A stretch of DNA of 64,000 bases, taken from contig CAKPXF010000001.1 in assembly GCA_934201705.1 (NCBI GenBank), forward strand, positions 66,783 through 130,782, written 5' to 3'. Numbering within the stretch: the stretch's first letter is position 1; each line of letters begins with the position of its first letter. Positions 197-32,997 of the stretch are shown here, one piece after another. The position numbers and the translations under genes were made by a program. The notes beneath the pieces are model-generated. The model worked only from the letters and a program-made list of their open reading frames with translations, ran no database searches and had not been told where the DNA came from. Source of the stretch: an uncultured Bacilli bacterium (GTDB taxonomy: Bacteria > Bacillota_I > Bacilli_A > RFN20 > CAG-631).

Positions 197-1555
197 TTAT
201 TTATTTTTCTTTAAAAGTAAAACCAATGATAAGAAAGCAAAAGATAGATAGGCTAAAGAAGATGTATTTCCCTTACAACCACTATTTGGCTTTGTTTCAC
301 TCGGAGTATTTGATGGATTTTCACTAGGATTTTCACTAGGATTATCGTTTACTTGTTCATTTACTCTAAATCTTACCTCATTTGTTGCTTCAAGTTCGCC
401 ATCGCTTGCTTTAAAAATAATATTATAAATACCACCTTTAGAAGGCTCCCAAACAAAGTAACCATTTCTTATTATACCAATTTTTTCATCCTTATATGTG
501 GCTTCATATGTTAGTTTTTTATCACCATCATATTCAAATAATTCACTTAGCTTAATTTCCATTTCTTCATTAGCGTCATAACTAGCAGCAGGCGCAAAGT
601 TATCTATAGATTTTAAATTAAATTGTGGCTTAGTGCATCTTATATAAGGAGTTGCTTCTTCTTTAGTAGTATTATCATATGATGTAATTTGTAACTTTTC
701 GATATCAACGGCAACACCAGTATTTTCAGTTGTTGCATTAGCAGAATATCCACTTGATGCCCAAAAGCCAATGTAACCTTTTTGCGTATCAAATGGGATT
801 ACTTCATCTTGTTTGTGAGTGTTTGAATAATAAGCATTTGATTGAAAATAGGATGTTTGTAATACACCATCAATATAAACCTTAAATGTTGTTCCGATTT
901 CTTTTGGACGAGGACGAGATGGATCCTTTGCATGGGTACTTGTAGCCTCAATTGTAAAATAATGATAATTATTATCACACCAATCAATGCTAGAGATAAC
1001 ACTACCCTCTTGAGGATTATCACTTTGTAAAAAGTAACGAGCTGCTCCATTTCCATCAAACGATTCATTAATTAGCATTTGAATATGAGAAGCTCCTTGA
1101 ATTCTTTCAAAGCAAATAGAAATCCAACCCTTATTGTTATACCAAGGACAAGCTGACATAGCAACATTTTCAACTTGTGTAGCATCATCATAATCAATAA
1201 ATGCAGTTAAATATAAATTTGCATAGTCAAATTGACCTTCAAAGCCAGTATCTGATGGACTAGGAAGATTTAAATTTGCATACATATCTAATCTAAATTC
1301 GTTAAATTTATTTGTTTTATATAAAGCATAATTAGATGATGCCATATTAATATTTTCCATTTTTAAATGACCTGAATCAAAAGTTGTTTTACCAGCACCA
1401 ATTCCAACAACATCCCAATCATACTTCCAATTTGCTAAATTGTTTTCTTCTTTTATATCAATACTATATTCATCACTAGCATTGACCTTTAATGATTCAC
1501 TTGTAAAAACGAATAATATACCAAAAGCTAAAGCTGATATTAATAGTTTTTTCAT
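197..1555 (-). CDS. Secreted cell-surface protein of unknown function with a Cys-containing C-terminal anchor (SENPSENPS linker, GCKG, hydrophobic helix, KKNK)
   Basis: 452-aa ORF with an N-terminal signal peptide (MKKLLISALAFGILFVFTSESLKVNA). The C-terminus has a low-complexity Pro/Ser/Glu linker, then GCKG, a ~17-residue hydrophobic segment and a basic tail. Confidence 0.7.
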   Translation of the reverse strand: MKKLLISALAFGILFVFTSESLKVNASDEYSIDIKEENNLANWKYDWDVVGIGAGKTTFDSGHLKMENINMASSNYALYKTNKFNEFRLDMYANLNLPSPSDTGFEGQFDYANLYLTAFIDYDDATQVENVAMSACPWYNNKGWISICFERIQGASHIQMLINESFDGNGAARYFLQSDNPQEGSVISSIDWCDNNYHYFTIEATSTHAKDPSRPRPKEIGTTFKVYIDGVLQTSYFQSNAYYSNTHKQDEVIPFDTQKGYIGFWASSGYSANATTENTGVAVDIEKLQITSYDNTTKEEATPYIRCTKPQFNLKSIDNFAPAASYDANEEMEIKLSELFEYDGDKKLTYEATYKDEKIGIIRNGYFVWEPSKGGIYNIIFKASDGELEATNEVRFRVNEQVNDNPSENPSENPSNTPSETKPNSGCKGNTSSLAYLSFAFLSLVLLLKKNK

Positions 1556-1561
1556 GTTTAA

Positions 1562-3235
1562 TTAGTCCTTTCTTGTTGCTTGATATAATTTGTATTGATT
1601 TGTTAGCCATTCAATATAGTTAGAAGCTTGTGATCTATAATGTGTACAAGCATCAATCCATGTTTCGCTTGGATTTTTAGTTCCAGCCCATGCTTTAGTT
1701 GCACATTCAAGATAAATATATGCTTCAGCTGTTGTATAATCCTTTGATACTTGAGCACTAGCTCCATAGAATAACATACCATCAGTAGCGTTTTTCAAGC
1801 AATTATAATTTCTAACCTTTTCAATCCAATTTCTTTCAGTTTCTGTATATTGCATAGGAATTTTATATGAAATGTCATCATTGTGAATTAAAGCAAATAC
1901 ACCACTATATGGCTTATGAGTTACATAATAATCATCCGTATATTCATAATAGTTATCACCGAATGATGAATCCTTCCATTGCTCACCTTTAATACCATAA
2001 GCACAAAGCTCATAGTTATCTTTATTTGAATACATCCAATCTAAATATTCAATTATTAAAGGAGCTTTATTTGATTTTTTATTAATAATTAAGCAGTCTG
2101 TATTTTTAGATACTTCAGCAAAGGCACCACTATTTTCAACGACATTACCATTTTCATCAACTGCATCAAGAGGATCTAAAATTGTAAATTCTGCCTTTTC
2201 ATCAATTTCTTTACATTTTCTTGCAACATCAATTAAATTAGTAATTGTTGGATTTAAAAAATATACTGCAGATTTTCCAGCTGCTAAATTTGATAATCTT
2301 TGGTTGGCAGAAATAGTTGTATTATCTCTTTCCCAAAGGCCATCGTTTACCCAATCATATTCTTGTTGCAATACCTTACCATAATTTTCACTAATCCAGC
2401 CTGGGACAACTTCCTTAATAGTATTATCATCATTATAATTAACGGCTCTATATTGATATCCAGTCGACTTATAAGCCCCAGCTAAAAGAGTAAATTCCAT
2501 ATCATATACGGGCCCTGATAATGGTGTTGTACATGTTGAAATTTCACTTTTCATTTTACGAATCATTGTATCAAAATCTTTAATAGTTCTACACCAAGTT
2601 AAAGTGCCTTTTGAAGAATCAGCTTCTTCTTTACTTTCAGTATAGCCAACCTGTCTCATGAAATCTTTTCTAACTAGTACGCCTTTTTGTTTTGTAATAT
2701 TAACCGAAGGAATGCCAATTATTTCATCATTAAAATTAGTTACTGAATAAATTGAATCACCTAGTGCATTTAAAATGTTTTTGCCACCTTTTCTAAATGA
2801 AGCTGTTAAATCAAGGACAACATCTTGGCTTAATACTGTATCTTCAAGGCCTGCTTGACCTAAATAGCTAACAGCACAATCCCATGCACTAGACCCCATT
2901 ACTGGAGAAAAAGCATTGCTAAATGTTGAGTGAGATTCATATAAAATATTAAAATTAACGGCATTACCTGTATCTTCATAAAATTTCTTTTCAATAGCTT
3001 CCTTTACGACATTTTCATCAACACCTTTAACGTATGCTCCATAAACATTACTTTCGTCAACATAAATTGTAATTGTAACTCGATTGTTTTTAACATCCTC
3101 CCATGGTAATCTTTCATTAGATGATAAATGTTCATTAGACGTGTTAGAAGTTGAATTTGTAGAATCAGTAGTACCACCACATCCTGTGATTGCTAAGCAT
3201 GCTAATACCATTACTAATAATTTGCTTTTGTTCAT
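1562..3235 (-). CDS. Lipoprotein, extracellular solute-binding protein of a carbohydrate ABC transporter (LplA/YtcQ-like, family 1 SBP)
   Basis: 557 aa with a lipobox (LAITGCGG) and Ser/Thr-rich linker. Size and composition are typical of the large sugar SBPs encoded next to LplB/LplC-type permeases, and it sits directly upstream of two permease genes. Confidence 0.75.
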   Translation of the reverse strand: MNKSKLLVMVLACLAITGCGGTTDSTNSTSNTSNEHLSSNERLPWEDVKNNRVTITIYVDESNVYGAYVKGVDENVVKEAIEKKFYEDTGNAVNFNILYESHSTFSNAFSPVMGSSAWDCAVSYLGQAGLEDTVLSQDVVLDLTASFRKGGKNILNALGDSIYSVTNFNDEIIGIPSVNITKQKGVLVRKDFMRQVGYTESKEEADSSKGTLTWCRTIKDFDTMIRKMKSEISTCTTPLSGPVYDMEFTLLAGAYKSTGYQYRAVNYNDDNTIKEVVPGWISENYGKVLQQEYDWVNDGLWERDNTTISANQRLSNLAAGKSAVYFLNPTITNLIDVARKCKEIDEKAEFTILDPLDAVDENGNVVENSGAFAEVSKNTDCLIINKKSNKAPLIIEYLDWMYSNKDNYELCAYGIKGEQWKDSSFGDNYYEYTDDYYVTHKPYSGVFALIHNDDISYKIPMQYTETERNWIEKVRNYNCLKNATDGMLFYGASAQVSKDYTTAEAYIYLECATKAWAGTKNPSETWIDACTHYRSQASNYIEWLTNQYKLYQATRKD

Positions 3236-3251
3236 ATTTTTCTCCTTTTTC

Positions 3252-4124
3252 TTATTCTTTTACTCCACCTTCAAGACTTCCTTTAATAAAGAATTTTTGA
3301 AGAAGTGGATAAATTAGTATTATTGGAATTAAAGAAATGATAACTGCTGCACTTCTTAATCCTCCATAATTTAAATTAGTATCACCAAAATAAGCCTTTA
3401 AGAATTCATCACTATCCTCAATTCGACGAATAAAAGCTTGAATTGGCCATAACTGATAGTGGTTACTATCAATAAATAATGATGCTGCAAACCAATCGTT
3501 CCACATTGCAACAGATGTATATAGTGAAATAGTTGCAATAATTGGAAGATTTAATGGTAATACTACTTTAAATAAAACCTGTAAATTAGTTGCTCCATCA
3601 AGTTCTGCTGCTTCAATTAATGCTTCAGGAACTTGACTGAAAAATTTTCTGGCTAATAATATATACCAAGCACTTACACCACTTGGTAAAATCAAAGCCC
3701 ACAAAGTATTCATTAATCCAAGATTATTAATTAAGATATAATATGGGATTGTTCCCCCACTAAATAACATAGAAATAATGAAATAATATGTAAAGAACTT
3801 TTTGAATTGTAATTTTTTTCGAGTTAGCGCATAGGCGGCAAGTGAAGTTGTAAAAATCATTAGTACTGTAGTACAAATAACTACAAATAAAGAATTTAAA
3901 ATAGAAATTACAAATTGATTACTTTCCATGCTAAATATAGCTTTATAATACTCTAAAGAAAAATCTCTAATAATTAGGCTATATCCATATAGTGTTAAGG
4001 CTTTTGTCCCGGTAAATGAAGAGTTAATTAATAATAATATCGGAATGATAAAGATTAAAGCAAAGATAACCATGAATATAACATTACATACGCTGAATAT
4101 TTTTTCGCCTTTTGATTTAATCAT
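3252..4124 (-). CDS. Carbohydrate ABC transporter permease (LplC/YtcP-like)
   Basis: 290 aa with 6 predicted TM segments and an EAA-loop motif (EAAELDGATNLQVLFKVVLP) characteristic of the MalG/LplC family. Confidence 0.85.
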   Translation of the reverse strand: MIKSKGEKIFSVCNVIFMVIFALIFIIPILLLINSSFTGTKALTLYGYSLIIRDFSLEYYKAIFSMESNQFVISILNSLFVVICTTVLMIFTTSLAAYALTRKKLQFKKFFTYYFIISMLFSGGTIPYYILINNLGLMNTLWALILPSGVSAWYILLARKFFSQVPEALIEAAELDGATNLQVLFKVVLPLNLPIIATISLYTSVAMWNDWFAASLFIDSNHYQLWPIQAFIRRIEDSDEFLKAYFGDTNLNYGGLRSAAVIISLIPIILIYPLLQKFFIKGSLEGGVKE

Positions 4125-4125
4125 G

Positions 4126-6009
4126 TTAATATGCTCCCTCCCCAGTTTTCTTTTTTAAAATCTTATTACTAATAATTACAAGAATTAATGCTATTAAACT
4201 TTGAAGCATTGACATTGCAGCAACTGCTGAATAATTACTTGCATTACCAATATTTTCGAAAACTATCATACCAATTGTATCTGTTGTATCACGTAGCATA
4301 GCACTTCCTCTAATCATAGTGTAGATTTGATCAAAGTCATCCCTAACTAAGTTACCTAAACTAAATACAACCTGAATTCCAAATGCTGGAAGTAATCCTG
4401 GTAAAGTTACATACAAGAATTGCTTAAATCCACCAGCGCCATCAATTCTAGCAGCTTCATAAATTGATTTATCAATTCCAGCCATTGCTGCTAAATAAAC
4501 AATTGTTGAATATCCAGCAGTTTTCCACATAGCACTAGATGTTAATATTAATCTCCAATATTGCGGAGAGGAATAAAAATTAATTGGTTCTTTTCCTAAA
4601 GCTTCTAAAATTTTATTAAATGTTCCTCCATCAGTTGCAAGTAAGACATATGATAATGTTGAGATAACAACCCATGAAATAAAATATGGAAAATAAGAAA
4701 CTGTTTGAACGACATTTTTAAATATGCCATTTTTTAAATAATTAAATAATACTGCTAGGGTGATAGCTATTAAAAATCCAAATATGAATTTCCAAAAGGC
4801 TAAGATAAAGGTGTTTTTCATTAACTTTCCAAAATCACTAGAAGGATTAGTAAACAAGTCAACAAAGTTTTTCATTCCAAACATTTGTGACCATTCACTA
4901 TTCCATATGCCATCATTTACACGATAATTTTTAAAGGCTATGACTATTCCGCCCATTGGAATATATGAGAAGATAAATAACATAACAACAGAAGGAAGTA
5001 GCATTAAATATAAATCGATGTTTGTAACAATTAATTTCATTTTTTTAGAATGAATTGCCTTTTTAAATAGCCCCTTTGTAATACCAATTATAATAAATGT
5101 TATTAATGCAATACCTAAAATAGAAAATATGCTAATTAGCACATAGTTTGGTGATAGTGTAAAATACACATATCCAGCAAAGCAATTTACATCCTTTTTT
5201 ACTATTGATTGATCATTCGAATTAATAATTGAAACTTTTTGTGTTATTGGTTTAATAGTAATTGAATTTTTACTTACATTGCTAACATTTTTAGAACCGT
5301 AAGCCTTAATATTACCTTTGAAATTAAATGTTATGCTTTCAAGGCCTTCAAAGTCTGCTAAGAAGAAGGTAAATACTTGTCCTTTTTTATCTTTAGCAAG
5401 CATTCCATCACTTTTAAATAAATCAATTGTTTCCTGTTCATTTAATGTTTTATTACCATCTAATAAAATTGGAGCAATAGCAGCATTTTCGTCACCGAAT
5501 TTTTGATTATCAAATTTGTAAATCATACTATTTGATGCGCCATCATTTAATTTTGTATAGTTCTTATAAGCCCCGATAAACCAAGAATCAGTAATTAATG
5601 AAACACTATCTGATTCTAAAATAAAATCTTTTGATTTTTTATATGAATAAATTCCTAAGTCTCCTCCAATATTTCCTTTTGATAAATATTGAATTCTCAT
5701 AAAAGATAATGTGGCTTCATAATAATCATCAAGTTCTTTTACTTTTTTAATTTTTACTCTATCTTCTTCACCTGAACAAACATTAGCAGCTAAAATAATA
5801 TCATTTAATTTTTTATCAACATCTTCTCTTGTAATAATTACGTTATTACCTAGTTCATCTTGATATTCTTTAGCAATTAAAATAGTTGCTTGTCCACTTC
5901 CATCTTTATTTATATCCATCGTTACATTACAACACGATGACATAACAAGGCAAATAAAGACTAAAAAGAATAAGGAAGCAACTTTTTTGAATTTATCTTT
6001 GACTTTCAT
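4126..6009 (-). CDS. Fusion protein: N-terminal ~300-aa extracytoplasmic domain (signal/lipoprotein-like) joined to a LplB/YtcP-type polysaccharide ABC permease
   Basis: 627 aa. Residues ~1-300 are hydrophilic after a signal-like N-terminus (FLVFICLVMSSCCNV). The C-terminal half has 6 TM segments and the EAA motif EAARIDGAGGFKQFLYVTLPGLLP typical of LplB permeases. Confidence 0.75.
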   Translation of the reverse strand: MKVKDKFKKVASLFFLVFICLVMSSCCNVTMDINKDGSGQATILIAKEYQDELGNNVIITREDVDKKLNDIILAANVCSGEEDRVKIKKVKELDDYYEATLSFMRIQYLSKGNIGGDLGIYSYKKSKDFILESDSVSLITDSWFIGAYKNYTKLNDGASNSMIYKFDNQKFGDENAAIAPILLDGNKTLNEQETIDLFKSDGMLAKDKKGQVFTFFLADFEGLESITFNFKGNIKAYGSKNVSNVSKNSITIKPITQKVSIINSNDQSIVKKDVNCFAGYVYFTLSPNYVLISIFSILGIALITFIIIGITKGLFKKAIHSKKMKLIVTNIDLYLMLLPSVVMLFIFSYIPMGGIVIAFKNYRVNDGIWNSEWSQMFGMKNFVDLFTNPSSDFGKLMKNTFILAFWKFIFGFLIAITLAVLFNYLKNGIFKNVVQTVSYFPYFISWVVISTLSYVLLATDGGTFNKILEALGKEPINFYSSPQYWRLILTSSAMWKTAGYSTIVYLAAMAGIDKSIYEAARIDGAGGFKQFLYVTLPGLLPAFGIQVVFSLGNLVRDDFDQIYTMIRGSAMLRDTTDTIGMIVFENIGNASNYSAVAAMSMLQSLIALILVIISNKILKKKTGEGAY

Positions 6010-6036
6010 TAATTATCACACCTTTCTTTTATAAAT

Positions 6037-6066
6037 AATATTCAAACGCCACTATTAATGGCGTTT
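6037..6066 (-). terminator. Rho-independent terminator downstream of the 1415-aa surface protein gene
   Basis: Inverted repeat tcaaacgcca/tggcgtttga with a 7-nt loop, followed on the minus strand by a T-rich tract. Confidence 0.5.
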
Positions 6067-6085
6067 GAATTGTAAATTTAAAATA

Positions 6086-9000
6086 TTAATTTTTCCTTTT
6101 TTTAAGGCATAATGCTCCAAGTAATGCAAGCATTCCGATAAGGCATGAAGCTTCACCTCTACAGCCCTTTTTATTTTCATTTGGTTTTTCTTCATTTGAA
6201 GAAGTATTATTTGTACTACTATTTATTATTTCACTTGAAGATGTGATTTCAGTAGGTGTGCTTGAAGGTTCTTCACTAGGTTTTTCACTAGGCTTTTCTT
6301 CACTATCTTTAATAACTTTATAAATTGCTAATTTTGCTTCATTTAAAACATTAGCATCCTTAGTTAATAATGATTTTTGCTCATCAGTTAAAGCATCATA
6401 AGCATTTTTAGCCATTTCATAAGCACTTTTAGCACTTTCAAGATTGTCTTTATTTACGTTAGTAATAACTTGCTCTAGTAATGCATCACATTCTTTAGCA
6501 ATTTGTTTATTTTTAATGTCATTTTTAACCTTGACGCCATCATAAGAAGTAACTCCTTCAATGTAGATGCCTTTAATTTCAAAGCCACCACTTCCTTGAT
6601 TAATCGGATCTGAAACGAATGCTTCAAGGCCAAAGTAACCACAATCCTTACTATCTTTATTTGTAGAAATATATTCTCTAACAAATGTTTTTCCACTTTC
6701 TCCACCAGTTAAAGAAATTATTGCTTTATAGCCAACGTATTCATCGTTTTCATATAAATCAATAGTTTTAATAGAAATCTTTGTATAGTTTTTATAAATA
6801 TGATGAATGTCAAGTTGACTACCTTCTTCATCAGTTGGATAATCTAATATAGTTTTAAAATCAGCAAGAGGATTACCAGCTGCATCTTTAGTCATAGGAA
6901 TAACACCATTAACACATTCAACGATTTTAAAGCCATCGCCTCCTACTAATAAAACCATATAGTTTCCTTCTTGTAGCCAGCTACCTTTATTATGATGCTT
7001 AGCAATTGAATCTGCTCTAACAATAAAGTAGAAATTACCCCACGTACATTTTTGTAGATTTGAATCAATAATCCATGTAAATTCCATTTCATTTAAAGCT
7101 TTAGCAGTTGTATAAATACTTAAATCATTTGTTGATGAATTAACAATTAAAGAGCCATCTTTAGCTTGCATATCATCAAAGCCATCTAATTCGTAAATGT
7201 TATCCTTAGTCTGTGCAAAATTATAGCCATCAATTTTATTTGCATCTTCATATTCTTTTAAAGCAATTAAGGATTGCTCTAATAAATCAGCATTTGTTAC
7301 TTCGCTCTTTTCAATATCATATAATTCATCATAAGCTTTTTTAGCGGCTAAAATAGTCCTTGAATCTTTAGCATAATTAGTAATAGGTAAATTGATTTTA
7401 GCAATTAAAGCAACTACTGGGTCAGCATATGATAAAATATCTTCATATTTATCTAATGCTTTTTTGCATTCTTCTAATTTTTTGACTAATGTAGCATCGC
7501 ATTGTGATTTTTGTTCATCAGTTAATAATTCATATTTAGCACTAGCATCTTTTACTATTTTTGCTTGCCTTTCATAATTAACTCTATTATAAGCTTCATT
7601 AACTTCGTTTAATTTTTCTAAAGCTAACTTAGCTAATACCACTACATCAACATTTTCTAAATCAGATTTAATTTGATTATATTTATTAATGTCTTCACTA
7701 GAAACAAGTTCTTTTTGAGTATCTGTTAAATTATTATAAAGATTTGTAACATTGTTAAATTGATTTACAATATCTGAATAGTTATCAGCTGTAATTGTAT
7801 CATAATTAATTTTAGTTAATTCATCTATAAATTTATTAGCATAATATAAATCCTTTGAATAAGATGATTTACTATCAGCTACATATAAACTAATTGTGTT
7901 ATTAGTTAAATCAGGTGTATTGCCACTAGCTGTAAGTGCTAAACCAGCTGATTGATTTCCCCACAAAGATTTATATGGTAATAATATTTCATTGCTATAT
8001 GTTTCACCTTTTCTTGAAGCATAATATGAAATATTTAATTTAACACCATCAGTTACATCTAAAACATCAAATGTTACCTCTGTTTTTTGTTGACAAATAA
8101 ACCAAAATGAATTTCCATCAACACCAGGAATTAAAAATGTTTGATCTGTGCCAATAACATTAATGTTACCTTCATCACATACTATTAATTGGTAACCAGC
8201 ATGAGTAATACATAAAGCGATAAAGCTTCCGTTAGCATTGCTTGGAACGATTGTATTAGTAGTATTATTAAATGTCCATAATACTTTTGAAAATTCCTCA
8301 GCTTGACCCTTAACCATCAATACAACTCCACCCCATGAAGAATCTAAAGCTGTATAGTCAAGAACGAATTTAACTGTAGCATTACCATTAAATTCTTTTG
8401 TAATGCCAAGTGATTGAATACCAGTTTGACTCATTGTACCATCATTAATTGCTGCATTGTATAGAGTTTGCCAATAATTAGCATCGCTATGATATTTATT
8501 AGCAACATCAATTAAGCTATAGCTTAACACTTCTAAATTAATTTCAACTTCGTTATTTTCTTTAACATTAACGATTACTTTATAAGTACCATTAACATTA
8601 ATCTTTATTTTTCCATCATTTCCTTTTTCGTAGAATGATCCTTGATATTTCACTTCATTAGTTGAATTATCAACAAATGATTTAACAGCATCGTATCCAT
8701 GAGCTGATTTTTCATCATCTACAAGGAAGTTAACATTAAATTCTTGACCTTCTAAAAGATTTAATGAACTTGCAAATGAATGTGCAAATCCTTCATTTGC
8801 TTCAATTTTTTCAAATGTATAGCCATTATCTAATTTACATTCATATTTAGTTGTAGGAATAATAGGTACATCTACTGCTTCAATATTGTTAACCTTCATT
8901 GTAACTTCGATATTATGATTTTCATTAATAGTACCACTACCAGTTCTACCATAAGTTACATGCTTTGTATTTCCTTTTAAAGAAGCATTAGTTGAAGTAT

Positions 9001-10333
9001 AAGAGAAAGTTGCATCGATTTCATGACCCCATGGTGATTTTGTGATTAATTCAAAATCAAATTTAACACCACTTGCTGTTTCAGTCATTTGAGTAACGAT
9101 TCTGAATGCTTTATCAAAACAGTAATAATGAAATTGATTCATGATATTTGGATCATCAGGAAAATTATTAGGAACAATGTTAGTTCCTTCTGTATAGCCT
9201 AAAGATTTATCAAATATGACAGTTCCATTAGCATCTCTTTCAATTACAGCAAAGCCCTTTGTCCAACCCCAAACTAAAGAAACAGAATTATTAGCTTGTA
9301 CCATACCAGTTGTAGCATCAATGCCAAATGTAGTATCATTAGCAAATGTTAAATATTCCCATTTCCAATCAGCCATAGGACTTAATTCAAGGCTTTGATT
9401 AGATGTAAAGTCAACCTTAGAGTTTCCACCAATTTCCTTTGTTTGATAATTAAATGTTGGTCCAGTTGCTTTCATTACATTTCCAGTAAATATAGCATTA
9501 TCACATGCACTCCAATTATCTTTACTAGCTGAATAAATAGTAGGATCAACAATACCCATTGTCATAATGATATTATGATTTTCATCAATAGTACCACTAC
9601 CAGTTCTACCATAAGTTACATGCTTGTCACCTTTTAATTGTTCATTTGTAGAAGTATAAGAAAAAGTAATATCTATATCATGACCCCAAGGCGATTTAGT
9701 AATTAATTCAAAATCAAATTTAACACCATTTGTTATTTCAGTCATTTGGGTAATAATTCTAGATGACTTATTAAAGCAATAAAAATGTGATTCATTTAAT
9801 ATATTAGCTTGATCAGCTCCATACTTTTCAAGCCCTGTTACTTTAACACCAGAATCATCTAAAGATAAGGCTTTGTCAAATACAGCCTTTCCTGTTGAAT
9901 CCTTTTCAATTACAGAAAATCCTTTTCCCCAACCCCAAACTAAAGAAAGTGAATTGCTAGCTGTTGTAATACCAGTTCCAGCATCAATTCCTTTTTCATT
10001 ACTAGTTGAAAATGTTAAATATTCCCATTTCCAATCAGCCATAGGACTTAATTCTAAAGTTTGATCAACTAAAAAATCGACTTTAGAATTACCACTAATT
10101 TTTTGTGTTTGCCAGTTAAAGTTTCCACTTACAGCTTTCATAGAATTTTCAGTAAAAGTTGCGTTAGTTGAATCAGTCCAATTTGATTGATTGTTAGTGA
10201 TAATATCACCACTAACCAAAGCATCTTCTGCAAAAATCTCTACATTAGAATCATTAATTACAAATGATGAAATTGTGATTAATGGAGCTGTTACTACTAA
10301 AGCTAATGTTAATAATTTTTTACCTTTTTTCAT
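6086..10333 (-). CDS. Large (1415 aa) secreted cell-surface protein with a tandemly duplicated ~270-aa domain, coiled-coil regions and the same Cys-containing C-terminal anchor (GCRG, TM, KKRKN)
   Basis: Signal peptide present. Two near-identical internal repeats are visible at protein level (SGNFNWQTQKISGNSKVDF...KSPWGHDID vs TGPTFNYQTKEIGGNSKVDF...KSPWGHEID) and at DNA level. The C-terminus has an EKPSEKPSEEPSS linker, GCRG, a hydrophobic helix and a basic tail. Confidence 0.75.
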   Translation of the reverse strand: MKKGKKLLTLALVVTAPLITISSFVINDSNVEIFAEDALVSGDIITNNQSNWTDSTNATFTENSMKAVSGNFNWQTQKISGNSKVDFLVDQTLELSPMADWKWEYLTFSTSNEKGIDAGTGITTASNSLSLVWGWGKGFSVIEKDSTGKAVFDKALSLDDSGVKVTGLEKYGADQANILNESHFYCFNKSSRIITQMTEITNGVKFDFELITKSPWGHDIDITFSYTSTNEQLKGDKHVTYGRTGSGTIDENHNIIMTMGIVDPTIYSASKDNWSACDNAIFTGNVMKATGPTFNYQTKEIGGNSKVDFTSNQSLELSPMADWKWEYLTFANDTTFGIDATTGMVQANNSVSLVWGWTKGFAVIERDANGTVIFDKSLGYTEGTNIVPNNFPDDPNIMNQFHYYCFDKAFRIVTQMTETASGVKFDFELITKSPWGHEIDATFSYTSTNASLKGNTKHVTYGRTGSGTINENHNIEVTMKVNNIEAVDVPIIPTTKYECKLDNGYTFEKIEANEGFAHSFASSLNLLEGQEFNVNFLVDDEKSAHGYDAVKSFVDNSTNEVKYQGSFYEKGNDGKIKINVNGTYKVIVNVKENNEVEINLEVLSYSLIDVANKYHSDANYWQTLYNAAINDGTMSQTGIQSLGITKEFNGNATVKFVLDYTALDSSWGGVVLMVKGQAEEFSKVLWTFNNTTNTIVPSNANGSFIALCITHAGYQLIVCDEGNINVIGTDQTFLIPGVDGNSFWFICQQKTEVTFDVLDVTDGVKLNISYYASRKGETYSNEILLPYKSLWGNQSAGLALTASGNTPDLTNNTISLYVADSKSSYSKDLYYANKFIDELTKINYDTITADNYSDIVNQFNNVTNLYNNLTDTQKELVSSEDINKYNQIKSDLENVDVVVLAKLALEKLNEVNEAYNRVNYERQAKIVKDASAKYELLTDEQKSQCDATLVKKLEECKKALDKYEDILSYADPVVALIAKINLPITNYAKDSRTILAAKKAYDELYDIEKSEVTNADLLEQSLIALKEYEDANKIDGYNFAQTKDNIYELDGFDDMQAKDGSLIVNSSTNDLSIYTTAKALNEMEFTWIIDSNLQKCTWGNFYFIVRADSIAKHHNKGSWLQEGNYMVLLVGGDGFKIVECVNGVIPMTKDAAGNPLADFKTILDYPTDEEGSQLDIHHIYKNYTKISIKTIDLYENDEYVGYKAIISLTGGESGKTFVREYISTNKDSKDCGYFGLEAFVSDPINQGSGGFEIKGIYIEGVTSYDGVKVKNDIKNKQIAKECDALLEQVITNVNKDNLESAKSAYEMAKNAYDALTDEQKSLLTKDANVLNEAKLAIYKVIKDSEEKPSEKPSEEPSSTPTEITSSSEIINSSTNNTSSNEEKPNENKKGCRGEASCLIGMLALLGALCLKKRKN

Positions 10334-20990: not shown

Positions 20991-22964
20991 TTAATCGTAA
21001 AACAAAACAATAGTTTTATAAGTTGGAATAGTAGTAGAAGAATCTAAATAATATCCAACTTCAACATTGATTAATTTATTATTTATTGTTTTACTGTAAA
21101 CATAAGAAATGTTTTCATCTTTATCTACTATTTCTTCTTTAGCAAATGAATTCATTTCTAAATAGCTCTCAATGTTTTTAGTGGCAATTTTTGCTGATTT
21201 TTCATCTAAAACATCTGTTTCAATTTGCAATAAGCAATTTCCTTCTTTACCTTTTAATTGGCGATAACTTACCTTAGATAAAACCTCACTAGATATAGTT
21301 CTATTTGAGAAGAAATCAAGTTTATCAAAGATTTCATCCATAAAGCCATATGAAGCTAAGCCTAATCTTTTTTCAATAAGTTGATTGAATTTTTCTTTAT
21401 CTAAATAAGAATCAAAACTACCTTGATAATAAAATACACCAAATGAAACTGTTTGATTGCTTTCATCGTACATAAGTGAAAATAGCCAAACATTATCTTT
21501 TGATAAATATTGATTAATACTAAGACCATAATAGTCATCAAGCTTTAAAGTTAAGGTATAAGAAAGCTTTTCCATTTTTTCTTTAAAGTCAGGCAAAGGA
21601 TTATTTAGTGCAGTTCCAATAATTGTACAATTAGAATCACTTTTGCTATCAGTATTTAAATAATAATTATATGTATTATCTATATTTGGAAAATCTTCAA
21701 TTGTAAAACTATTTTCATTATCTAATTTTATGTAATTCATAAAATCAACTAAATGAGTTAATTGATTAACGCCTTTTAATGAGTCTTTATTATTTGTTAG
21801 TTCATCAATTTTAGTATTATTAATATCATAAACCTTTAAATAAATATCATTACTTATCATATAAGTGTGAGTTTCTTTATCAAGTGTTTTTTTAGAATAT
21901 AAATTTAAGCTAGAAAGATCATCATTAGTAAAGCCAATTTTATTAAAGAAAGTTGAAAATGTTAAAGCACTAAAGCCATAATAAGTATCATTAGAAAACA
22001 TTGTGCTATTTAATTCTTCATTATCCACCTTAGGTCTAAAATCAAATGAAGGGATTTCATATAATGATGAGGCTACATACCTTTTACCTGTTTCTATATC
22101 AACATAATAATCGCTATTAACAGAATGCTTAATAACACCATCTTCTTTATAAAAAGAAGCACTTAAAATACCATCATCATTTATAAAAGCAACATTATTT
22201 GTTGTAGGATTTTCATCATTTATATCAATATATTCATGATTTGCATTAAAAACGCCATTAGAATATGCGGTATCTGTGTATTTAGATACATAGATAAAAT
22301 CATTAAATTTGAATTCTAATGTATAGTTAGTAAGGCTAGTTAATAAATTAATTTGATCCTTTAAAGGCTTAAATGTATCGTTAACATTAACTATAAAACT
22401 AATAGAGTTAACATCAACATTAGTGTTTAAATATGATATAGCAATTTCTACATCTCCAGCTTTAGTAAATTGTTTGTTTTCATAATTAGTTGAATAGTTT
22501 TTAGTTTCTCCTTTTGAGGAAAATGCACCATCTACATATGTTAATAAATTAATTTTTAATCCTGTGCTATCAAAATAGTCGCCAGTATTATAGCTGACTT
22601 TATTTGGAAGAGATGCTATTTCAAGCTCATAAGAGGTGTAGCCCTTATATGGGAAAACACTAACTTCTATTTGGGCACTTTCAGTTTCATTACTAGCAAA
22701 AACTGTTATTTTTCCTGATTTTAGAACGGTTAATGAACCTTTATTAGAAATTAAGGCAATTGATTCATCACTAACGCTAAATTTAACATTATCTTTATTA
22801 GTCGTATACTGATAAGTATTACCAACATAGGCGATGCTTTCGCCACTTATGTTTAACTTTTCACTTTCAGATAAAGATGCATCGTTATTACAAGAAATCA
22901 AATTAATATTTATAGATGAAAACAAAAGTAACGAAAAGATAATTAAACTTTTATTTTTTCTCAT
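20991..22964 (-). CDS. Lipoprotein with an N-terminal BIG2 (bacterial Ig-like) domain, unknown function
   Basis: 657 aa. Signal peptide with lipobox (NINLISCNN). A BIG2-like segment follows (ISGESIAYVGNTYQYT...ITVFASNETESAQIEVSVF). Confidence 0.65.
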   Translation of the reverse strand: MRKNKSLIIFSLLLFSSININLISCNNDASLSESEKLNISGESIAYVGNTYQYTTNKDNVKFSVSDESIALISNKGSLTVLKSGKITVFASNETESAQIEVSVFPYKGYTSYELEIASLPNKVSYNTGDYFDSTGLKINLLTYVDGAFSSKGETKNYSTNYENKQFTKAGDVEIAISYLNTNVDVNSISFIVNVNDTFKPLKDQINLLTSLTNYTLEFKFNDFIYVSKYTDTAYSNGVFNANHEYIDINDENPTTNNVAFINDDGILSASFYKEDGVIKHSVNSDYYVDIETGKRYVASSLYEIPSFDFRPKVDNEELNSTMFSNDTYYGFSALTFSTFFNKIGFTNDDLSSLNLYSKKTLDKETHTYMISNDIYLKVYDINNTKIDELTNNKDSLKGVNQLTHLVDFMNYIKLDNENSFTIEDFPNIDNTYNYYLNTDSKSDSNCTIIGTALNNPLPDFKEKMEKLSYTLTLKLDDYYGLSINQYLSKDNVWLFSLMYDESNQTVSFGVFYYQGSFDSYLDKEKFNQLIEKRLGLASYGFMDEIFDKLDFFSNRTISSEVLSKVSYRQLKGKEGNCLLQIETDVLDEKSAKIATKNIESYLEMNSFAKEEIVDKDENISYVYSKTINNKLINVEVGYYLDSSTTIPTYKTIVLFYD

Positions 22965-22966
22965 AA

Positions 22967-24085
22967 TTATTTATTTAAGTTCTCCTTGTCCTTTTGTATT
23001 TGTTCCTTTAAGCCAGCAATTACTGTAGTACCAATATCAAAAATTTTAAACTTTGCTCTATAAGTGTAAACGTTACCTGAAGCACTTAAAGCCACATTCT
23101 TAAAGTCAAACTCCATAGAAATTTCATTGTTTGTATATGAAATTTTTCCAGTTAAATCATTGAAAAATCCACTATCATTAAATATAGATGCATAGCTTCC
23201 ATCAACTGCATTGAAGATTACTTGAGGTATTGAATAATCAATACTATATGAGCTTGTATCTGTAAAATTATTTCCATCCGTTTTAGAGTCATATGAATAA
23301 TAAGTTTTATCTTCACTTAGTGTTAAGTTAGAATCTTCAATTTTAAATTCATCAGTAACAAATTTAGATAAATCACCAGTATATCCCTTTTTATAATCAG
23401 AAATACCAGCCAATCCTAAAAATTGATCGATACCACTATCAGTAAATTTACCATTTACCATATCAAAGTTATGAACATATCCATCTGGAGAATTATAGCC
23501 TCCACCTTCATATTCATTACCATCTCCATCAATGCCATATTTAGAATAATAACCATCAACCTCTGCTTTATAAACGTTTCCTTTTTCAACTAAATCTTCA
23601 TATAAGGATACTGGATCACTAGTACCATTAATTAACTCGTTATTCCTAATATATTCTTTATCAACAATTTCATTTTTATCATTAATTAATTCGCCAGTCC
23701 AAGAAATTGTATAATTATAGTTGCTACCAGCATTATACATAATTCTTGTTAATTCATTGATGCTTGGAGTATGGATTTCTAATAGCTTTGATACCTTAAA
23801 TTCGTTATTTTCGCCATAGCTAGCTGTTACAATAAAAGTTCCATCTTTTTCATTTACTGTTAAAAGACCATCGCTAGTTATTGTTGCAAGATTATTAGAA
23901 ACAGACCAAGTAACATCTATATTAGAAGGGGCTTCAACTGTTAATTGAAGCTTTTCCCCTTGAACTAATACATCCTTTGCTGATTTAATTTCGCCTAATT
24001 CATTTAATTCAACATTAATAACTGTATCGCTACATCCCATTAAAATTGGAGTAGCAAGTAAAATAAATAAATATTTCTTTTTCAT
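22967..24085 (-). CDS. Lipoprotein with a BIG2 domain, unknown function (start adjusted to the internal Met)
   Basis: The ORF track starts at 24139. The signal peptide with lipobox (MKKKYLFILLATPILMGCSDT) begins at the 19th codon, which removes the overlap with the upstream gene. A BIG2-like segment is present (LQLTVEAPSNIDVTWSVSNN...FIVTASYGENNEFKVSKLL). Confidence 0.6.
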   Translation of the reverse strand: MKKKYLFILLATPILMGCSDTVINVELNELGEIKSAKDVLVQGEKLQLTVEAPSNIDVTWSVSNNLATITSDGLLTVNEKDGTFIVTASYGENNEFKVSKLLEIHTPSINELTRIMYNAGSNYNYTISWTGELINDKNEIVDKEYIRNNELINGTSDPVSLYEDLVEKGNVYKAEVDGYYSKYGIDGDGNEYEGGGYNSPDGYVHNFDMVNGKFTDSGIDQFLGLAGISDYKKGYTGDLSKFVTDEFKIEDSNLTLSEDKTYYSYDSKTDGNNFTDTSSYSIDYSIPQVIFNAVDGSYASIFNDSGFFNDLTGKISYTNNEISMEFDFKNVALSASGNVYTYRAKFKIFDIGTTVIAGLKEQIQKDKENLNK

Positions 24086-24086
24086 A

Positions 24087-26972
24087 TTACCAATCCCATC
24101 CTGGATCAATTTCTCCACTACCTGATGATGTTTTTTCAAGTAGTTTTAAAGTTTCTCCATTATAAACAATATTAATTCCTTCAATTGTTCCATCACTCTT
24201 TAAAGCACCAACCATAGAAGCATTTAATTTACTAACTAATGCAGCGTTATCACAAACAATATTAGTTAATGTTAATGTATTACCTGAAACAACAATATCA
24301 AAAGTAAATGTTCCAATAATAGTTGTTTCGCCATAATAATAAGGTTCGTTTTTAATAACAAGAGTTCCTTTTAAAGTGTTTTCAGAAACATCTGTAAATG
24401 TTAATGTATAAGTAGTATCATCATAAGTTGACCAGTCTGTTACAGACTTAGAGTATGTTTTATCTTTAATAGATTCATAAATAGAAGGAACAGCTTTTAT
24501 TTCAATAGTTTTTGTAACAAACTTGCTTGAATCGCCTTCAGCAGTAGCCTTTATTACAATACTACCAGCTGTATTTCCAGCCTTTAATAAGAATTTACTA
24601 CCACTCTTTTCAATAGTGCATCCTAAATTATCACCTTCAATAGTATAAGTAACATTGCTATTTTCCACAGATCCACTTGGATTAACAATAGCCTTTATTT
24701 CACTACTATCATTACAATACATTGAATCAGGAGCTTTTGTTAATTCAACATTTTCAATAGCAGCATAGCTAACAACAAATGTTAATGTCTTACTAACATT
24801 TTTACTAGCAAATGTAACATTGTATTCTCCTTTCTTTGGCGCAGAAATTGTAAATCCATATTTTACACTACCATAAACATTAATGCCACTATCCTTAGTA
24901 GTAGTTATTTCATCAATACCAGCTAGTGCAGTTGAAGGAACAATATCCTTTAATTCAACAAATACATCATTTGAAACAATAATATTATATTTTCCTTCAC
25001 TAGTAGGAGTTATTTTTGATCCTTCTTTATCTGATTTACTAGTAAATACATTCAAATCAAATGCAGAGTAATAATAATTATCGAAGTTAAAGTATTTATT
25101 ATTATCAGCTTCCTTTTGACCATATTCAATTGAAGCAGTATATTCAGTGATTTGGTCTTTAGCAGTTGAAACTAAATTTCCATCACTATCAATTTCATGA
25201 TCAACACGCTTATAAGAAAGTGCGTCAACACCACCATCGCTTGTAAATGAAATTGTAGATGTTACATCTGTTTTATATTTAGTATTACGGAATCCAGTAG
25301 TAATACATGTTGCAGTAAATTTATAGCCATTAGCATCCTTTAAGCCAACTAATGAACTTCTAATTTCTTTTTCATCACCATCAACAGAAAATACTCCATC
25401 AATAAGTTTCTTACTATAGAAATCAGCTAATCCAGTATATTTATCACCGATTCCTGTATTTTCTAAAAATTCTGCAGAGCCAAATGTATTTAAATATCCT
25501 TGATATTCTACTTTATTATCTTCAGTTATTTCTGTGTTATTAATAACACTAACATCTTGTCCGTTTTTGTTAAGTGTATAGAAGACATTATCAACAATGC
25601 CTTGATATAAATAGCTAACAGCGCCATCTTTATCAGTTACCTTTGTAACAGTATATCCATCAGAATAGCTTTCAAATGAATATTCATTATTAATAGAAGA
25701 ATCATCATCATCTATATGATAAGTAAATGTAACCTTTTTAGTATTATTCAATTCATATTCTTTAGCAGTGGCTAATTTATCTTTTAAAGTATTAGATAGC
25801 ATTGTACCACTAGAAATTGGTTTTACATTAATTTCAGCCTTAATAGAATCATTATCCTTTAAGCTTACATAGATAGTGTTTGTATTTTCACTAGCATTTA
25901 ATATTGTTAATTTTCCATCACTTGTAATTTCAATATCCTTATCGCTAGAGCCTTTTTCCCAAACAAGTTCTGCAAAGCTTCCTTCTGGCTCTAATGTGGT
26001 AGTTAAATCGTATGTTTCTCCTTCTTCAACGAAATAATTAGTACCCCATCTAGTTTGATTTTCAATCCAAGATTCTGGAATGTTAATAGATATAGCAGTA
26101 GCTTTAAAGACAAAGCTTACTTCAATTGATACAAGGCCTTCTTTGACAGGAAATGAATAGTTAGTATCACTATTTTCATCTTTTGCAATTTCACTACCAT
26201 TTACTTTAACATATCTAGTAATATATTTATCATTAGCAGTTGCAGTAATAGTTAATGTAGTATTTTCATCAACACATGAACCATTTTGAACAACTGTATC
26301 ACCATTTTTAATAACTACAGTTCCATTAGTAAATGTTTCATCTAAATCAATTAAGCCTTTATTAGGATTAATCAAACTAAAAGTAGCACTTAAGAAGTTC
26401 TTGCCTTCAATTACTTTAAATGTGAAGTTTCCTTCATTATCTTTATTTATTGTAGTATTGTCATTTAGTTTAATAGATTCAATTTGATAGGCCTTATTAA
26501 CTGGAGTTGCTTCTACCACTACTTCAGTATCAATTGGCAACCTTTTATTGTCTTTATTAATAGGAGTTCCGTCTTTAAGCTTAACAGTGATTGTTCCATT
26601 ATTAACCTTAGAAGAAATTACTTCAACAGTACCATATTTACTAATAGGTGTTGATTCAATAAAAGTAACCTTAACAACATTGCTTCCTTCTTTAACTTTA
26701 AAGGTATTAGAATCCAATTTTGTGTCATTTAAATAGTAAGAGTCAATCTCATATCCTTCATTTGGACTAGCAATAATTGTAACAATTGTATCAATTTTTA
26801 CATTGCCTAATTTTGAAGCACTAACACTTCCGTTTTCAATATCATTTGCAACAGTTACAGCACCATATTTTATTGTTTCAACATTGTTAGATTCACAGCC
26901 ACTAATACTTAATGAAACAATGGAAGAAAACAATAAAAATGATGATATTAAAATGCTTTTTGTTTTTCTCAT
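24087..26972 (-). CDS. Large lipoprotein (961 aa) with four or more tandem ~85-aa Ig-like repeats, unknown function
   Basis: Lipobox LSISGCESNN. Repeated domain units are visible (YGAVTVANDIENGSV...VKVTFIE, YGTVEVISSKVNNGTI...SATFSLI, etc.). It is first in a three-gene lipoprotein operon. Confidence 0.65.
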   Translation of the reverse strand: MRKTKSILISSFLLFSSIVSLSISGCESNNVETIKYGAVTVANDIENGSVSASKLGNVKIDTIVTIIASPNEGYEIDSYYLNDTKLDSNTFKVKEGSNVVKVTFIESTPISKYGTVEVISSKVNNGTITVKLKDGTPINKDNKRLPIDTEVVVEATPVNKAYQIESIKLNDNTTINKDNEGNFTFKVIEGKNFLSATFSLINPNKGLIDLDETFTNGTVVIKNGDTVVQNGSCVDENTTLTITATANDKYITRYVKVNGSEIAKDENSDTNYSFPVKEGLVSIEVSFVFKATAISINIPESWIENQTRWGTNYFVEEGETYDLTTTLEPEGSFAELVWEKGSSDKDIEITSDGKLTILNASENTNTIYVSLKDNDSIKAEINVKPISSGTMLSNTLKDKLATAKEYELNNTKKVTFTYHIDDDDSSINNEYSFESYSDGYTVTKVTDKDGAVSYLYQGIVDNVFYTLNKNGQDVSVINNTEITEDNKVEYQGYLNTFGSAEFLENTGIGDKYTGLADFYSKKLIDGVFSVDGDEKEIRSSLVGLKDANGYKFTATCITTGFRNTKYKTDVTSTISFTSDGGVDALSYKRVDHEIDSDGNLVSTAKDQITEYTASIEYGQKEADNNKYFNFDNYYYSAFDLNVFTSKSDKEGSKITPTSEGKYNIIVSNDVFVELKDIVPSTALAGIDEITTTKDSGINVYGSVKYGFTISAPKKGEYNVTFASKNVSKTLTFVVSYAAIENVELTKAPDSMYCNDSSEIKAIVNPSGSVENSNVTYTIEGDNLGCTIEKSGSKFLLKAGNTAGSIVIKATAEGDSSKFVTKTIEIKAVPSIYESIKDKTYSKSVTDWSTYDDTTYTLTFTDVSENTLKGTLVIKNEPYYYGETTIIGTFTFDIVVSGNTLTLTNIVCDNAALVSKLNASMVGALKSDGTIEGINIVYNGETLKLLEKTSSGSGEIDPGWDW

Positions 26973-29641: not shown

Positions 29642-30988
29642 TTATTTCAAAACTTCCCAATAACCATTTTTGTTTGAACCAACTCTTCTAAGTAATTCTT
29701 TTCCTTTCAATGATTTTATGATTCTATCAATTGTTCGGCTTGAAAGACCAGTTTGTTTGATAACTTCATCTTTTATTGCAGTTTTATTGTTTTTAAAAAC
29801 TGTTAAAACAGAAAATTCTTCTTCAGATAATTCGCCATTTATTTCGCCATTTATTTCGCCATTTATTTCGCCAACTTTATTTCTATCCATTCTAGAAAAT
29901 TCAATTGTAAAATCATTTTCATTATTAATGTATGAAATGTCTACTTTAGCTTCTTTGCACAAACGATATACCTTTTTCAATCCATGTCCACATGTTTCAA
30001 CATCTTTGCAAAGATATAATACATCGGCAATCGATTAATTCCTTAAATACGATTTTAAATCTCTATAAAAAAAATCATTTGGGGTATAATCATTAGCAAA
30101 TGAACCTGGATTAATAATCGCTATTCTATTTGAATAAATATCTATCTCATGTTGAACATTTCCATCGTATCTTGCATGAGCAAAACTATTAATGATAACT
30201 TCACGCAAAGCGACTAGAGGAATTTCTGGGATTTCTTTTCTTTGTGGTGATGCACCATCAATAATCACTTTCCATCTTATATTTTTTATTACAAAATCCA
30301 TTGCTTCATCGATTAATTCAAAAATATTGCCTTTAATTGTTTTCATGTCTAAAATTGTAACTCTTTCACTTGTAGCAAATACGACCAATTTTAAAGTAAT
30401 TGGATTAGTATTTCCAAAAAGCATTACACCAGCATTTGTTAAAAAACCATTTCTAAGTAAATTATGTTTAATCAACAATGTCTCTTTATCAAATTCAATT
30501 TTTGGCAATCTACCACACTCTGTCGCGTTTTCATAAAATTTCAACAAGCACTCTTCTTTAACATCAGCAGCAGTATATGAAGTTAATTTGTCACACCAAT
30601 TTTCTTCATATTCTTTTGAAATCATCATTTTTCTAAGTTCACTTGGTGTTAATTCTCTATCCTCATCCGCAATTCTTATATAATATCTTCCGAATGCTTA
30701 ATATGGAGTATCATTTCCAGAAAAATCGACCTTTATAACATCAATCCCATCAATTGATACAATTTCAATTTTTGGGAAAATTTGAGGTTTGATTGCTTCA
30801 TAAATTTTTCTAGAAATATCTCTTAAAGTGGAGTCGTTAATTTCAAATTTAAATGGAGTTCCATCATTTCTGATTCCGAAAAAAAGTTCTCCAGGCTGAT
30901 GTTTGTTTAATATACTTACGATGGATACAATGCCTTCAGTTATTTCTCTTGTTGTTTCCTTAAATTTTCTTGTTTCGTTTTCAACCAT
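29642..30988 (-). pseudogene. Disrupted gene for an AlbA_2 (Schlafen-like) / HATPase_c_4 / C-terminal wHTH transcriptional regulator, split into three ORF fragments
   Basis: The 30698..30988 fragment has the AlbA_2-like N-terminal domain and 30035..30628 the ATPase-like middle domain (EIPLVALREVIINSFAHARYD). The 29642..29980 fragment has the C-terminal winged-HTH (LSSRTIDRIIKSLKGKELLRRVGSNKNGYWEVL). Fragments are in different frames or separated by stops. Confidence 0.6.
29831..29870. repeat. 12-bp tandem repeat (ttcgccatttat x ~3.3) inside the pseudogene, encoding (EING)n
   Basis: Direct reading: ttcgccattt atttcgccat ttatttcgcc atttatttcg cc. Minus-strand translation gives GEINGEINGEINGE. 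Confidence 0.85.
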
Positions 30989-31169
30989 AAATCAATCCTC
31001 TAACTGTATTAATTATGTGAATTTTGACGAAATAAATCAATAATATGGCGAAATATTTTTTAATGACGCATTATTTTTCATGGGTCAAAAATTAATATGA
31101 ATTAAGCTCTCATAAAAATTAAAAAAAGTTTGACACATTTTATTGTGTCAAACTAATTGCTTCAATAAT

Positions 31170-31253
31170 GTAAGCGGTAATAGCATAGTAGCAATGTTAG
31201 CCCCTACTTATAATCGTGTAAAATTTTAGCATCATTTGTATTAAATCGTGTAA
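31170..31253. repeat. Left copy of a ~45-bp imperfect direct repeat (att-like) flanking a ~3-kb island
   Basis: gtaagcgGtAAtagcatagtagcaaTgttagc...aatcgtgtaaaa matches 34209..34256 (gtaagcgCtGGtagcatagtagcaaGgttagcattaaatcgtgtaaaa). An extra partial copy attaaatcgtgtaa follows. Confidence 0.6.
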
Positions 31254-31296
31254 TTTATTCGCATCTTTTAGCACCTTGTTTTTTAAAGGTTCATTA

Positions 31297-31629: not shown

Positions 31630-31631
31630 TT

Positions 31632-32826: not shown

Positions 32827-32967
32827 ATACTGCCTCCACTAAATGAAGGAGTTGGCAAACAAATGCAAGAAACAAATTTTAAAAAAAATAAATAATTTTA
32901 TGTGCATTGTTGCACCTCCTGTTCTTAATTTTTTTAGTCTTTCTAACGAGAAAAGCTCATTGAAGAC

Positions 32968-32997
32968 TTGATATTTTTAAGACAGTTGTGCTATAAT
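32968..32997 (+). promoter_or_regulatory. Sigma-A-type promoter (TTGATA, 18 nt, TATAAT with upstream TG)
   Basis: cTTGATAtttttaagacagttgTGcTATAATg drives a ~70-nt transcript that ends at the terminator at 33037..33072. Confidence 0.5.

Follow-up and report, generated by a model that had tools for sequence, protein, structure and literature searches.

How do uncultured gut Bacilli hold glycan-capturing proteins at their surface? Surface display governs the capture of dietary and host glycans by gut Firmicutes, and in Gram-positive bacteria it is framed almost exclusively in terms of sortases and LPXTG signals, N-terminal lipoproteins, S-layers or cohesin systems. We analysed 64,000 nucleotides of contig CAKPXF010000001.1 (assembly GCA_934201705.1, positions 66,783 to 130,782; hereafter the window) from an uncultured Bacilli bacterium. 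Two secreted proteins encoded there, of 452 and 1415 amino acids (aa), share a C-terminal tail built around a Gly-Cys pair, which an earlier reading of the sequence (the original prediction) had proposed to be a sorting signal other than LPXTG. We find that the tail is a genuine conserved module in which drift surrounds the Gly-Cys on all sides, and that it is portable, being common to lectin-like, Ig-like, esterase and phosphodiesterase ectodomains. The Gly-Cys tail is probably a new way to tether sugar-capturing proteins to the cell.

Both minus-strand open reading frames (ORFs) are present as originally described, begin with a Sec-type signal peptide and end alike after a Pro/Ser/Glu linker. 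The 452-aa protein terminates in ...SGCKGNTSSLAYLSFAFLSLVLLLKKNK (also given as ...NPSNTPSETKPNSGCKGNTSSLAYLSFAFLSLVLLLKKNK) and the 1415-aa protein in ...KKGCRGEASCLIGMLALLGALCLKKRKN (also given as ...NEEKPNENKKGCRGEASCLIGMLALLGALCLKKRKN). The shared tail comprises about 27-30 aa and stands behind a disordered Pro/Ser/Glu stalk in both proteins. A BLASTP comparison of the two returned a single significant alignment, consisting of linker and tail (E = 5e-6), the remainder being unalignable, and a scan of the approximately 55 ORFs of the window found the Gly-Cys ending on these two proteins only. The 452-aa protein has 20 database homologues ranging from 93% down to 35% identity, all of which carry the Gly-Cys, the helix and the basic cluster at their end. 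In the alignment of this family G426 and C427 are invariant (21/21) while the stalk is unalignable and varies in length. All 8 homologues of the 1415-aa protein likewise retain the tail, including one that shares just 10% of the query length.

A consensus drawn as a logo from 53 non-redundant tails reads [K/S][K/S/G]-G-C-x-[G/S]-S-[V/I/L], followed by a hydrophobic helix of about 17 aa and then a K/R cluster, so that a signature motif, a transmembrane (TM) helix and a basic cluster occupy the extreme C-terminus. The Cys is invariant (53/53 tails, in both families), with Gly at position -1 and Gly or Ser at position +2 in 52/53 each. The remaining positions are K at -3, K, S or G at -2, K, G, N or S at +1, S at +3 and V, I or L at +4. 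A polar spacer of 4-6 residues separates the Cys from the helix, and there is no invariant Pro, DP or GP. The Cys lies 24-34 aa upstream of the C-terminus and 19-27 aa (mode 22) from the K/R cluster, which is found in every tail. The motif GC[KR]G and the basic end KK[NR]K, as first proposed, describe the window pair; among relatives they widen to G-C-x-[G/S], where x is K, G, N, S or R, and to a generic K/R cluster. Two variants were observed in related loci: an orthologue with Lys-Cys replacing Gly-Cys (…QPKKKCGSQ…; L011:1141-4083) and a protein in which the motif is doubled (…KGCKKGCKGS…; L080:8316-9923), recalling the GCGC of MYXO-CTERM.

The tail is found far beyond these two families. 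A 32-position tail profile, compared without a word index with 1.84 billion representative proteins, gave 11 significant matches (E ≤ 0.001), all ending no more than 3 residues from the C-terminus. One is a fragment of a window protein and the others are unrelated proteins, among them a 966-aa protein with Big_2 repeats, a 629-aa repeat protein, a cadherin-like fragment and a 777-aa Big_3 protein whose N-terminal module is duplicated in tandem. A tail profile scored locally on the 452-aa family reached E ≤ 10 in 19/20 members (22-39 bits). A degenerate DNA-pattern scan of metagenomes gave at least 120 matches; at least about 9 stretches among the matches listed have true tails, and these revealed new carrier families though no enzyme. 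Further carriers among these matches are a SASA carbohydrate esterase, a protein with Laminin_G_3 (LamG) and Flg_new domains, a Big_4 protein and a protein of about 1800 aa from an organism of 52-53% GC. In the genome-derived locus L010 the tail is carried by a GDPD phosphodiesterase. Several unrelated Sec-exported carriers occur per genome or lineage: two in the window and 2-3 different tail proteins (about 450, 640 and 1000-1700 aa) in each of the syntenic loci, which come from 17 species-level genomes. The hosts of these loci include an Erysipelotrichaceae metagenome-assembled genome (MAG), rumen and caecal Clostridia MAGs, Christensenellaceae and Candidatus Scatosoma. Overall, carriers are mostly located in glycan loci with ATP-binding cassette (ABC) transporters in uncultured Bacilli (Candidatus Caccosoma) and Clostridia. 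The idea that the motif might be limited to the two window proteins, which would have undone the original prediction, fails given dozens of unrelated carriers.

On Caccosoma-like low-GC contigs the stalk travels with the tail as a cassette of about 70 aa (…EPS…SSSEI.NSSTN.TSSNEEKPNENKKGC[KR]G…) that is attached to unrelated ectodomains. Its identity to the end of the 1415-aa protein (window 6089-6307) is 62-64% in L081:1248-3263 and L123:3599-6775 and 30-46% in L029:13-2274 and L142:832-1584. As the cassette is common to unrelated ectodomains, its distribution suggests that stalk and anchor form a module shuffled among proteins by recombination.

A genome of 27% GC encodes many hydrophobic and Lys-rich segments, which could make the tail a chance likeness of low-complexity sequence, or else an artefact of assembly or annotation. 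At least 8 contigs from independent assemblies, as long as 343-400 kb, carry identical copies of both tail genes, the Gly-Cys stays invariant in two families whose members span 35-100% identity and in organisms with a GC content of 27-53%, and 11/11 significant profile matches are C-terminal. The invariance in homologues and in the 53 tails, together with the recurrence of the genes on independent assemblies, places the likeness far beyond chance. We give this explanation next to no credence and, on the conservation data, consider it already refuted.

Could the tail be a single-pass TM anchor that is retained uncleaved, its Gly-Cys having another role, for instance S-acylation to strengthen or position the anchor, or contact with the ABC transporter? 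A helix and a basic cluster alone are enough for stop-transfer, nearby loci yielded no processing enzyme, and the clustering of tail proteins with ABC transporters makes contact with a membrane-embedded partner conceivable. However, G-C-x-[G/S] is 98-100% conserved over Bacilli, Clostridia and unrelated ectodomains, fixed spacing combined with minimal cytoplasmic ends is a hallmark of enzyme-recognised sorting signals, and the Cys is missing from plain TM anchors of comparable loci. Locus L024, where both anchor types occur side by side, is a natural internal control. A 1581-aa neighbour of a Gly-Cys-tailed protein (L024:3630-8375; weak Pfam matches to Big_2 and heparinase II/III-like domains) ends there in a plain TM helix and an acidic cytoplasmic tail of 22 aa, without Cys. 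The Gly-Cys is therefore not a mere by-product of having a helix. Compared with these 22 aa, the cytoplasmic ends of the Gly-Cys tails are very short, like those of discarded sorting signals. The near-absolute motif, its fixed spacing, cytoplasmic ends of minimal length and the Lys-Lys ahead of the Cys, which in resemblance only recalls polybasic-plus-lipid anchors, favour recognition by an enzyme over a passive anchor. A retained anchor appears rather unlikely to us, if still a serious contender.

We therefore asked whether the tail belongs to a catalogued sorting signal. We ran hmmscan on both proteins and on each tail in isolation, against NCBIfam (E ≤ 10) and Pfam, and scanned 27 diverse tails singly. 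No C-terminal sorting model was matched by either protein or by its isolated tail; the curated NCBIfam and Pfam sorting models thus include none that fits the window tails. The singly scanned tails gave matches to LPXTG_anchor (TIGR01167; 11/27, best E 0.0016), Rumino_NPXTG (7/27, best E 0.0079), MYXO-CTERM (TIGR03901; 3/27, best E 0.023), GC_trans_RRR (TIGR03382; 2/27, best E 0.11) and Synerg-CTERM (TIGR04564; 3/27, best E 0.11), and none to Firmicu-CTERM (TIGR04145) or GlyGly-CTERM (TIGR03501). Weak, sporadic and spread over many tripartite models, these matches point to an architecture in common and to membership in none.

Each catalogued class was rejected individually. MYXO-CTERM matched no window tail and only a few relatives weakly, and the hosts are Bacillota, not Myxococcota or Bradymonadales. 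In the case of Synerg-CTERM, the three matches are weak, a polar spacer separates the Cys from the helix of our tails and an invariant Pro is missing. A pentapeptide with Pro at position 2 and Thr at position 4, as in LPXTG signals, is absent, and three regular-expression matches proved to be false positives inside Gly-Cys tails. The Firmicu-CTERM/XrtG pairing fails on the model itself and on the examined loci, which contain no exosortase or glycosyltransferase neighbours, and GlyGly-CTERM/rhombosortase fails on its model and on the fetched loci, in which no rhomboid gene was found. The proposed tripartite, non-LPXTG nature of the tail is thereby borne out. Its proposed kinship with Cys-containing CTERM signals survives as a likeness of architecture, closest to MYXO-CTERM, and not as membership in MYXO-CTERM or Firmicu-CTERM.

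The LPXTG_anchor and Rumino_NPXTG matches raise the alternative that a specialised sortase reads G-C-x-G/S as a divergent signal and links the protein to peptidoglycan. The hosts are Bacillota, the stalk is similar to the wall-spanning regions of Gram-positive surface proteins, and 551 kb of related loci contain 0 true LPXTG tails versus 46 distinct Gly-Cys tails, in a sample biased to loci with such tails. Yet the generic helix and basic cluster best account for these weak matches, the tails have no conserved Pro or Thr and none contains an LPXTG-like motif, and the fetched loci contain no sortase gene. No sortase motif is known to have an invariant Cys, and we hold a divergent sortase signal to be improbable.

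What might an enzyme do with such a tail? The explanation we favour, with the balance of our confidence at its midpoint, is that the tail is a portable C-terminal membrane-anchoring and sorting module whose Cys would be lipidated and whose helix would be cut off. Following Sec export, the protein would stay membrane-bound through its helix, its Cys lying at the outer leaflet. The Cys thiol would be lipidated by Lgt or another acyl or prenyl transferase, and an intramembrane protease with a gene at another place in the genome, the leading candidate being a CPBP/Rce1-type 'myxosortase-like' enzyme, would cut right after the Cys. The helix would then be discarded, leaving a glycan-binding protein or enzyme C-terminally lipid-anchored beside the ABC importer, with the stalk spacing it from the membrane. 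We infer cleavage and lipidation by analogy with MYXO-CTERM/myxosortase and CAAX processing. MYXO-CTERM signals are processed by the CPBP myxosortases MrtX, MrtC and MrtP, and MrtX cleaves in a Cys-dependent manner; a lipid on the Cys, perhaps attached by Lgt, has been proposed and is unproven (PMC11980579). The survey by Haft describes four Cys-containing signals, MYXO-, JDVT-, Synerg- and CGP-CTERM, in diderm bacteria or archaea. Comparative genomics there connects each of them with an intramembrane protease of the CPBP/Rce1 type, as a rule unlinked to its targets, and the survey leaves Firmicutes/Bacillota unmentioned (bioRxiv 10.1101/2023.06.07.544157). In the literature available to our searches, no Cys-type C-terminal signal is described for Firmicutes/Bacillota.

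Several points weigh against lipidation of the Cys and removal of the helix. A search that combined Pfam on the membrane proteins of the window, Pfam tables of the neighbours of tail proteins and manual ORF lists turned up no CPBP, rhomboid, sortase or exosortase gene, whether in the window, in the adjoining 10 kb on each side or in about 30 related loci. This agrees with the original statement that the processing enzyme is not in the window. The multi-TM ORFs of all loci are ABC permeases only, without the EExxxR motif of CPBP proteases, and the 10-kb extension beyond the window end holds housekeeping genes only. CPBP proteases are moreover very common in Firmicutes, and the presence of one is therefore not diagnostic by itself. 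Finally, the characterised Cys-type signals all come from diderms, with type II secretion system (T2SS) export, or from archaea, and none from monoderm Bacillota, and so the gain from exchanging a helix for a lipid is less obvious here.

A lipid on the Cys could also serve release instead of anchoring: the Cys would be diacylglycerylated and an Lsp-type cut made before it, at a lipobox-like junction of G and C, shedding the ectodomain. With Gly at -1 and small polar residues following the Cys, the tail resembles the Firmicute lipoboxes and mature N-termini of neighbouring lipoproteins, for example ...ITGC, then GGT. But no hydrophobic h-region precedes the Cys, positions -3 and -2 hold Lys/Ser and not Leu/Ala, the topology is opposite to that of Lsp substrates, and release would defeat the pairing of binders with a membrane importer. 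We hold shedding to be very improbable.

The ectodomains carried by the tail are consistent with a role in glycan capture. The AlphaFold2 model of the 452-aa protein (mean predicted local distance difference test score, pLDDT, 82.5) comprises a beta-sandwich domain at about residues 30-300, an Ig-like domain at about 310-399, a disordered segment at 404-437 (pLDDT <50) and a terminal helix at 436-449. Foldseek matched the ordered part to 4m00 (E 2e-9), the lectin-containing ligand-binding region of the staphylococcal adhesin SraP, and to the galectin-like YesU (1oq1), and the Ig-like region gave a weak profile match (E 0.0013) to the R. bromii starch-adherence protein Sas6. Judging by these models, the lectin-like tail proteins are surface glycan-binding proteins. 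The 1415-aa protein is without a match to any Pfam family. Coordinates of both genes and of their tail elements are collected below.

Table 1. Positions of the two tail genes, their C-terminal elements and the intervening transporter genes in the window
Feature	Position	Strand	Basis or remark
452-aa secreted lectin-like surface protein gene	197..1555	(-)	ORF; AlphaFold2 model; Foldseek
Disordered Pro/Ser/Glu/Asn stalk N399-S425, 452-aa protein	281..361	(-)	pLDDT <50; hypervariable and length-variable in alignment
Signature motif G426-C427-K428-G429, 452-aa protein	269..280	(-)	G426, C427 invariant 21/21
Hydrophobic TM segment L434-L448, 452-aa protein	212..256	(-)	Sequence; predicted helix 436-449
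Basic cytoplasmic end KKNK (K449-K452), 452-aa protein	200..211	(-)	Sequence; stop codon 197-199
ABC sugar-transporter genes	1562..6009	(-)	Between the two tail genes; ORF calls; PF00528 on both permeases
1415-aa secreted surface protein gene	6086..10333	(-)	ORF; repeated beta-rich modules, helical spacers, stalk, Gly-Cys tail
Pro/Ser/Glu/Thr/Asn stalk D1343-K1389, 1415-aa protein	6167..6307	(-)	Alignment with 452-aa protein
Signature motif G1390-C1391-R1392-G1393, 1415-aa protein	6155..6166	(-)	Sequence, alignments
Hydrophobic TM segment ~A1395-L1410, 1415-aa protein	6104..6151	(-)	Sequence; holds two further Cys
Basic cytoplasmic end KKRKN, 1415-aa protein	6089..6103	(-)	Sequence

The window has a low GC content of about 27-30%. 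The species-representative copy of the locus is from a human-gut MAG ('uncultured Bacilli bacterium'), and NCBI annotates both tail proteins as 'hypothetical protein [Candidatus Caccosoma sp.]' (MDY2889895.1, MDY2889899.1), a taxon placed in Bacillota incertae sedis. The ABC importer is encoded by three genes, for a 557-aa solute-binding lipoprotein, a 290-aa permease and a 627-aa permease that bears an N-terminal extracytoplasmic domain, and its neighbours are glycoside hydrolases (GH63-like, GH127, GH32) and an AraC regulator. The gene order of this ABC transporter/tail locus is kept in Bacilli and Clostridia (loci L007-L022). The N-terminal domain of the 627-aa permease (window 4126-6009, -) is about 300 aa long and follows a signal-like helix that terminates in a lipobox-like ...VMSSCC; this fused architecture (602-637 aa) is kept in all syntenic Bacilli and Clostridia loci. 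Three successive predicted N-terminal lipoproteins of 657, 372 and 961 aa, with the lipoboxes ...LISC, ...LMGC and ...ISGC, are encoded at 20991-26972 (-). Their presence in a row indicates that the host uses classical N-terminal Cys lipidation heavily, alongside C-terminal Gly-Cys tails. Elsewhere in the window, two paralogous genes at 58165-59160 (-) and 60700-61689 (-) encode proteins of 331 and 329 aa with no assigned function. They are about 93% identical in protein and about 95% in DNA, lie about 1.5 kb apart with small ORFs in between, and are a recent local duplication. The region 29700-34100, with overlapping, short ORFs on both strands that include a helix-turn-helix protein and an adjoining 189-aa ORF (33092-34020), looks like a degraded mobile element or prophage remnant.

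Conserved on many proteins of glycan loci, the tail would represent an additional anchoring route in abundant uncultured gut lineages (Candidatus Caccosoma, low-GC Bacilli, Christensenellaceae, Ca. Scatosoma) and would extend the Cys-type (myxosortase) signals from diderms and archaea to Bacillota. A new hidden Markov model (HMM) of the tail would allow annotation of 'hypothetical' surface proteins, and its presence or absence would give comparative genomics a clean handle for finding the lipid transferase of the whole Cys-type class. More tentatively, and with the prospects somewhat short of even, this could be the first Cys-dependent, myxosortase-like C-terminal lipid anchoring of the monoderm-lineage Bacillota, widespread in uncultured gut and rumen Bacilli and Clostridia, which may serve as their main route, replacing LPXTG/sortase, for displaying proteins that bind or degrade glycans beside ABC importers, and whose transferase and protease possibly form a new family.

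How does the Gly-Cys tail compare with known systems? Firmicu-CTERM is likewise a C-terminal sorting domain of Firmicutes, but it is the target of a dedicated XrtG exosortase operon (PMC12854382) that includes glycosyltransferases, and no such genes are found near tail proteins. This only catalogued 'Firmicute' CTERM is unrelated to the Gly-Cys tail. LPXTG signals, with Rumino_NPXTG and other Firmicute variants, share with the tail their Gram-positive-lineage hosts, the order of stalk, motif, short spacer, helix and K/R cluster, the frequent Gly near the helix end, and a cargo of adhesins, lectins and enzymes. They differ in that the Gly-Cys tail has no Pro/Thr motif, has Cys as its invariant residue and matches their HMMs below threshold only. 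The eukaryotic CAAX box with an upstream polybasic stretch (K-Ras4B type, Rce1) resembles the tail in the Lys before the Cys and in the proposed cut behind a lipidated Cys by a CPBP-family protease, whereas here a helix-containing peptide of 25-30 aa follows the Cys, at the extracytoplasmic face of a bacterial membrane; we take this resemblance as a lead only. Closer are Synerg-CTERM (MrtS), JDVT-CTERM (MrtJ) and CGP-CTERM (MrtA), all Cys-containing, tripartite and Ser/Gly-rich around the Cys. The Cys of Synerg-CTERM, however, abuts a helix with an invariant Pro, JDVT-CTERM carries a DP motif and occurs on a single target per genome as opposed to several targets per locus, and CGP-CTERM, an archaeal signal, contains an invariant Cys-Gly-Pro. 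The closest architecture is that of MYXO-CTERM ('GC_trans_RRR'), which also occupies the extreme C-terminal 30-34 aa or so, combines a Gly-Cys containing an invariant Cys with a TM helix and a basic cluster, follows a disordered region, occurs on dozens of secreted surface proteins that are unrelated to one another and has its enzyme gene away from its targets. Where MYXO-CTERM has GCGC, the tail described here has G-C-x-[G/S] with flanking Lys and a Lys-rich basic cluster, and it occurs in monoderm-lineage Bacillota with no outer membrane or T2SS step. The uncatalogued Gly-Cys tail is best filed with the Cys-containing tripartite sorting signals, as a new form of them.

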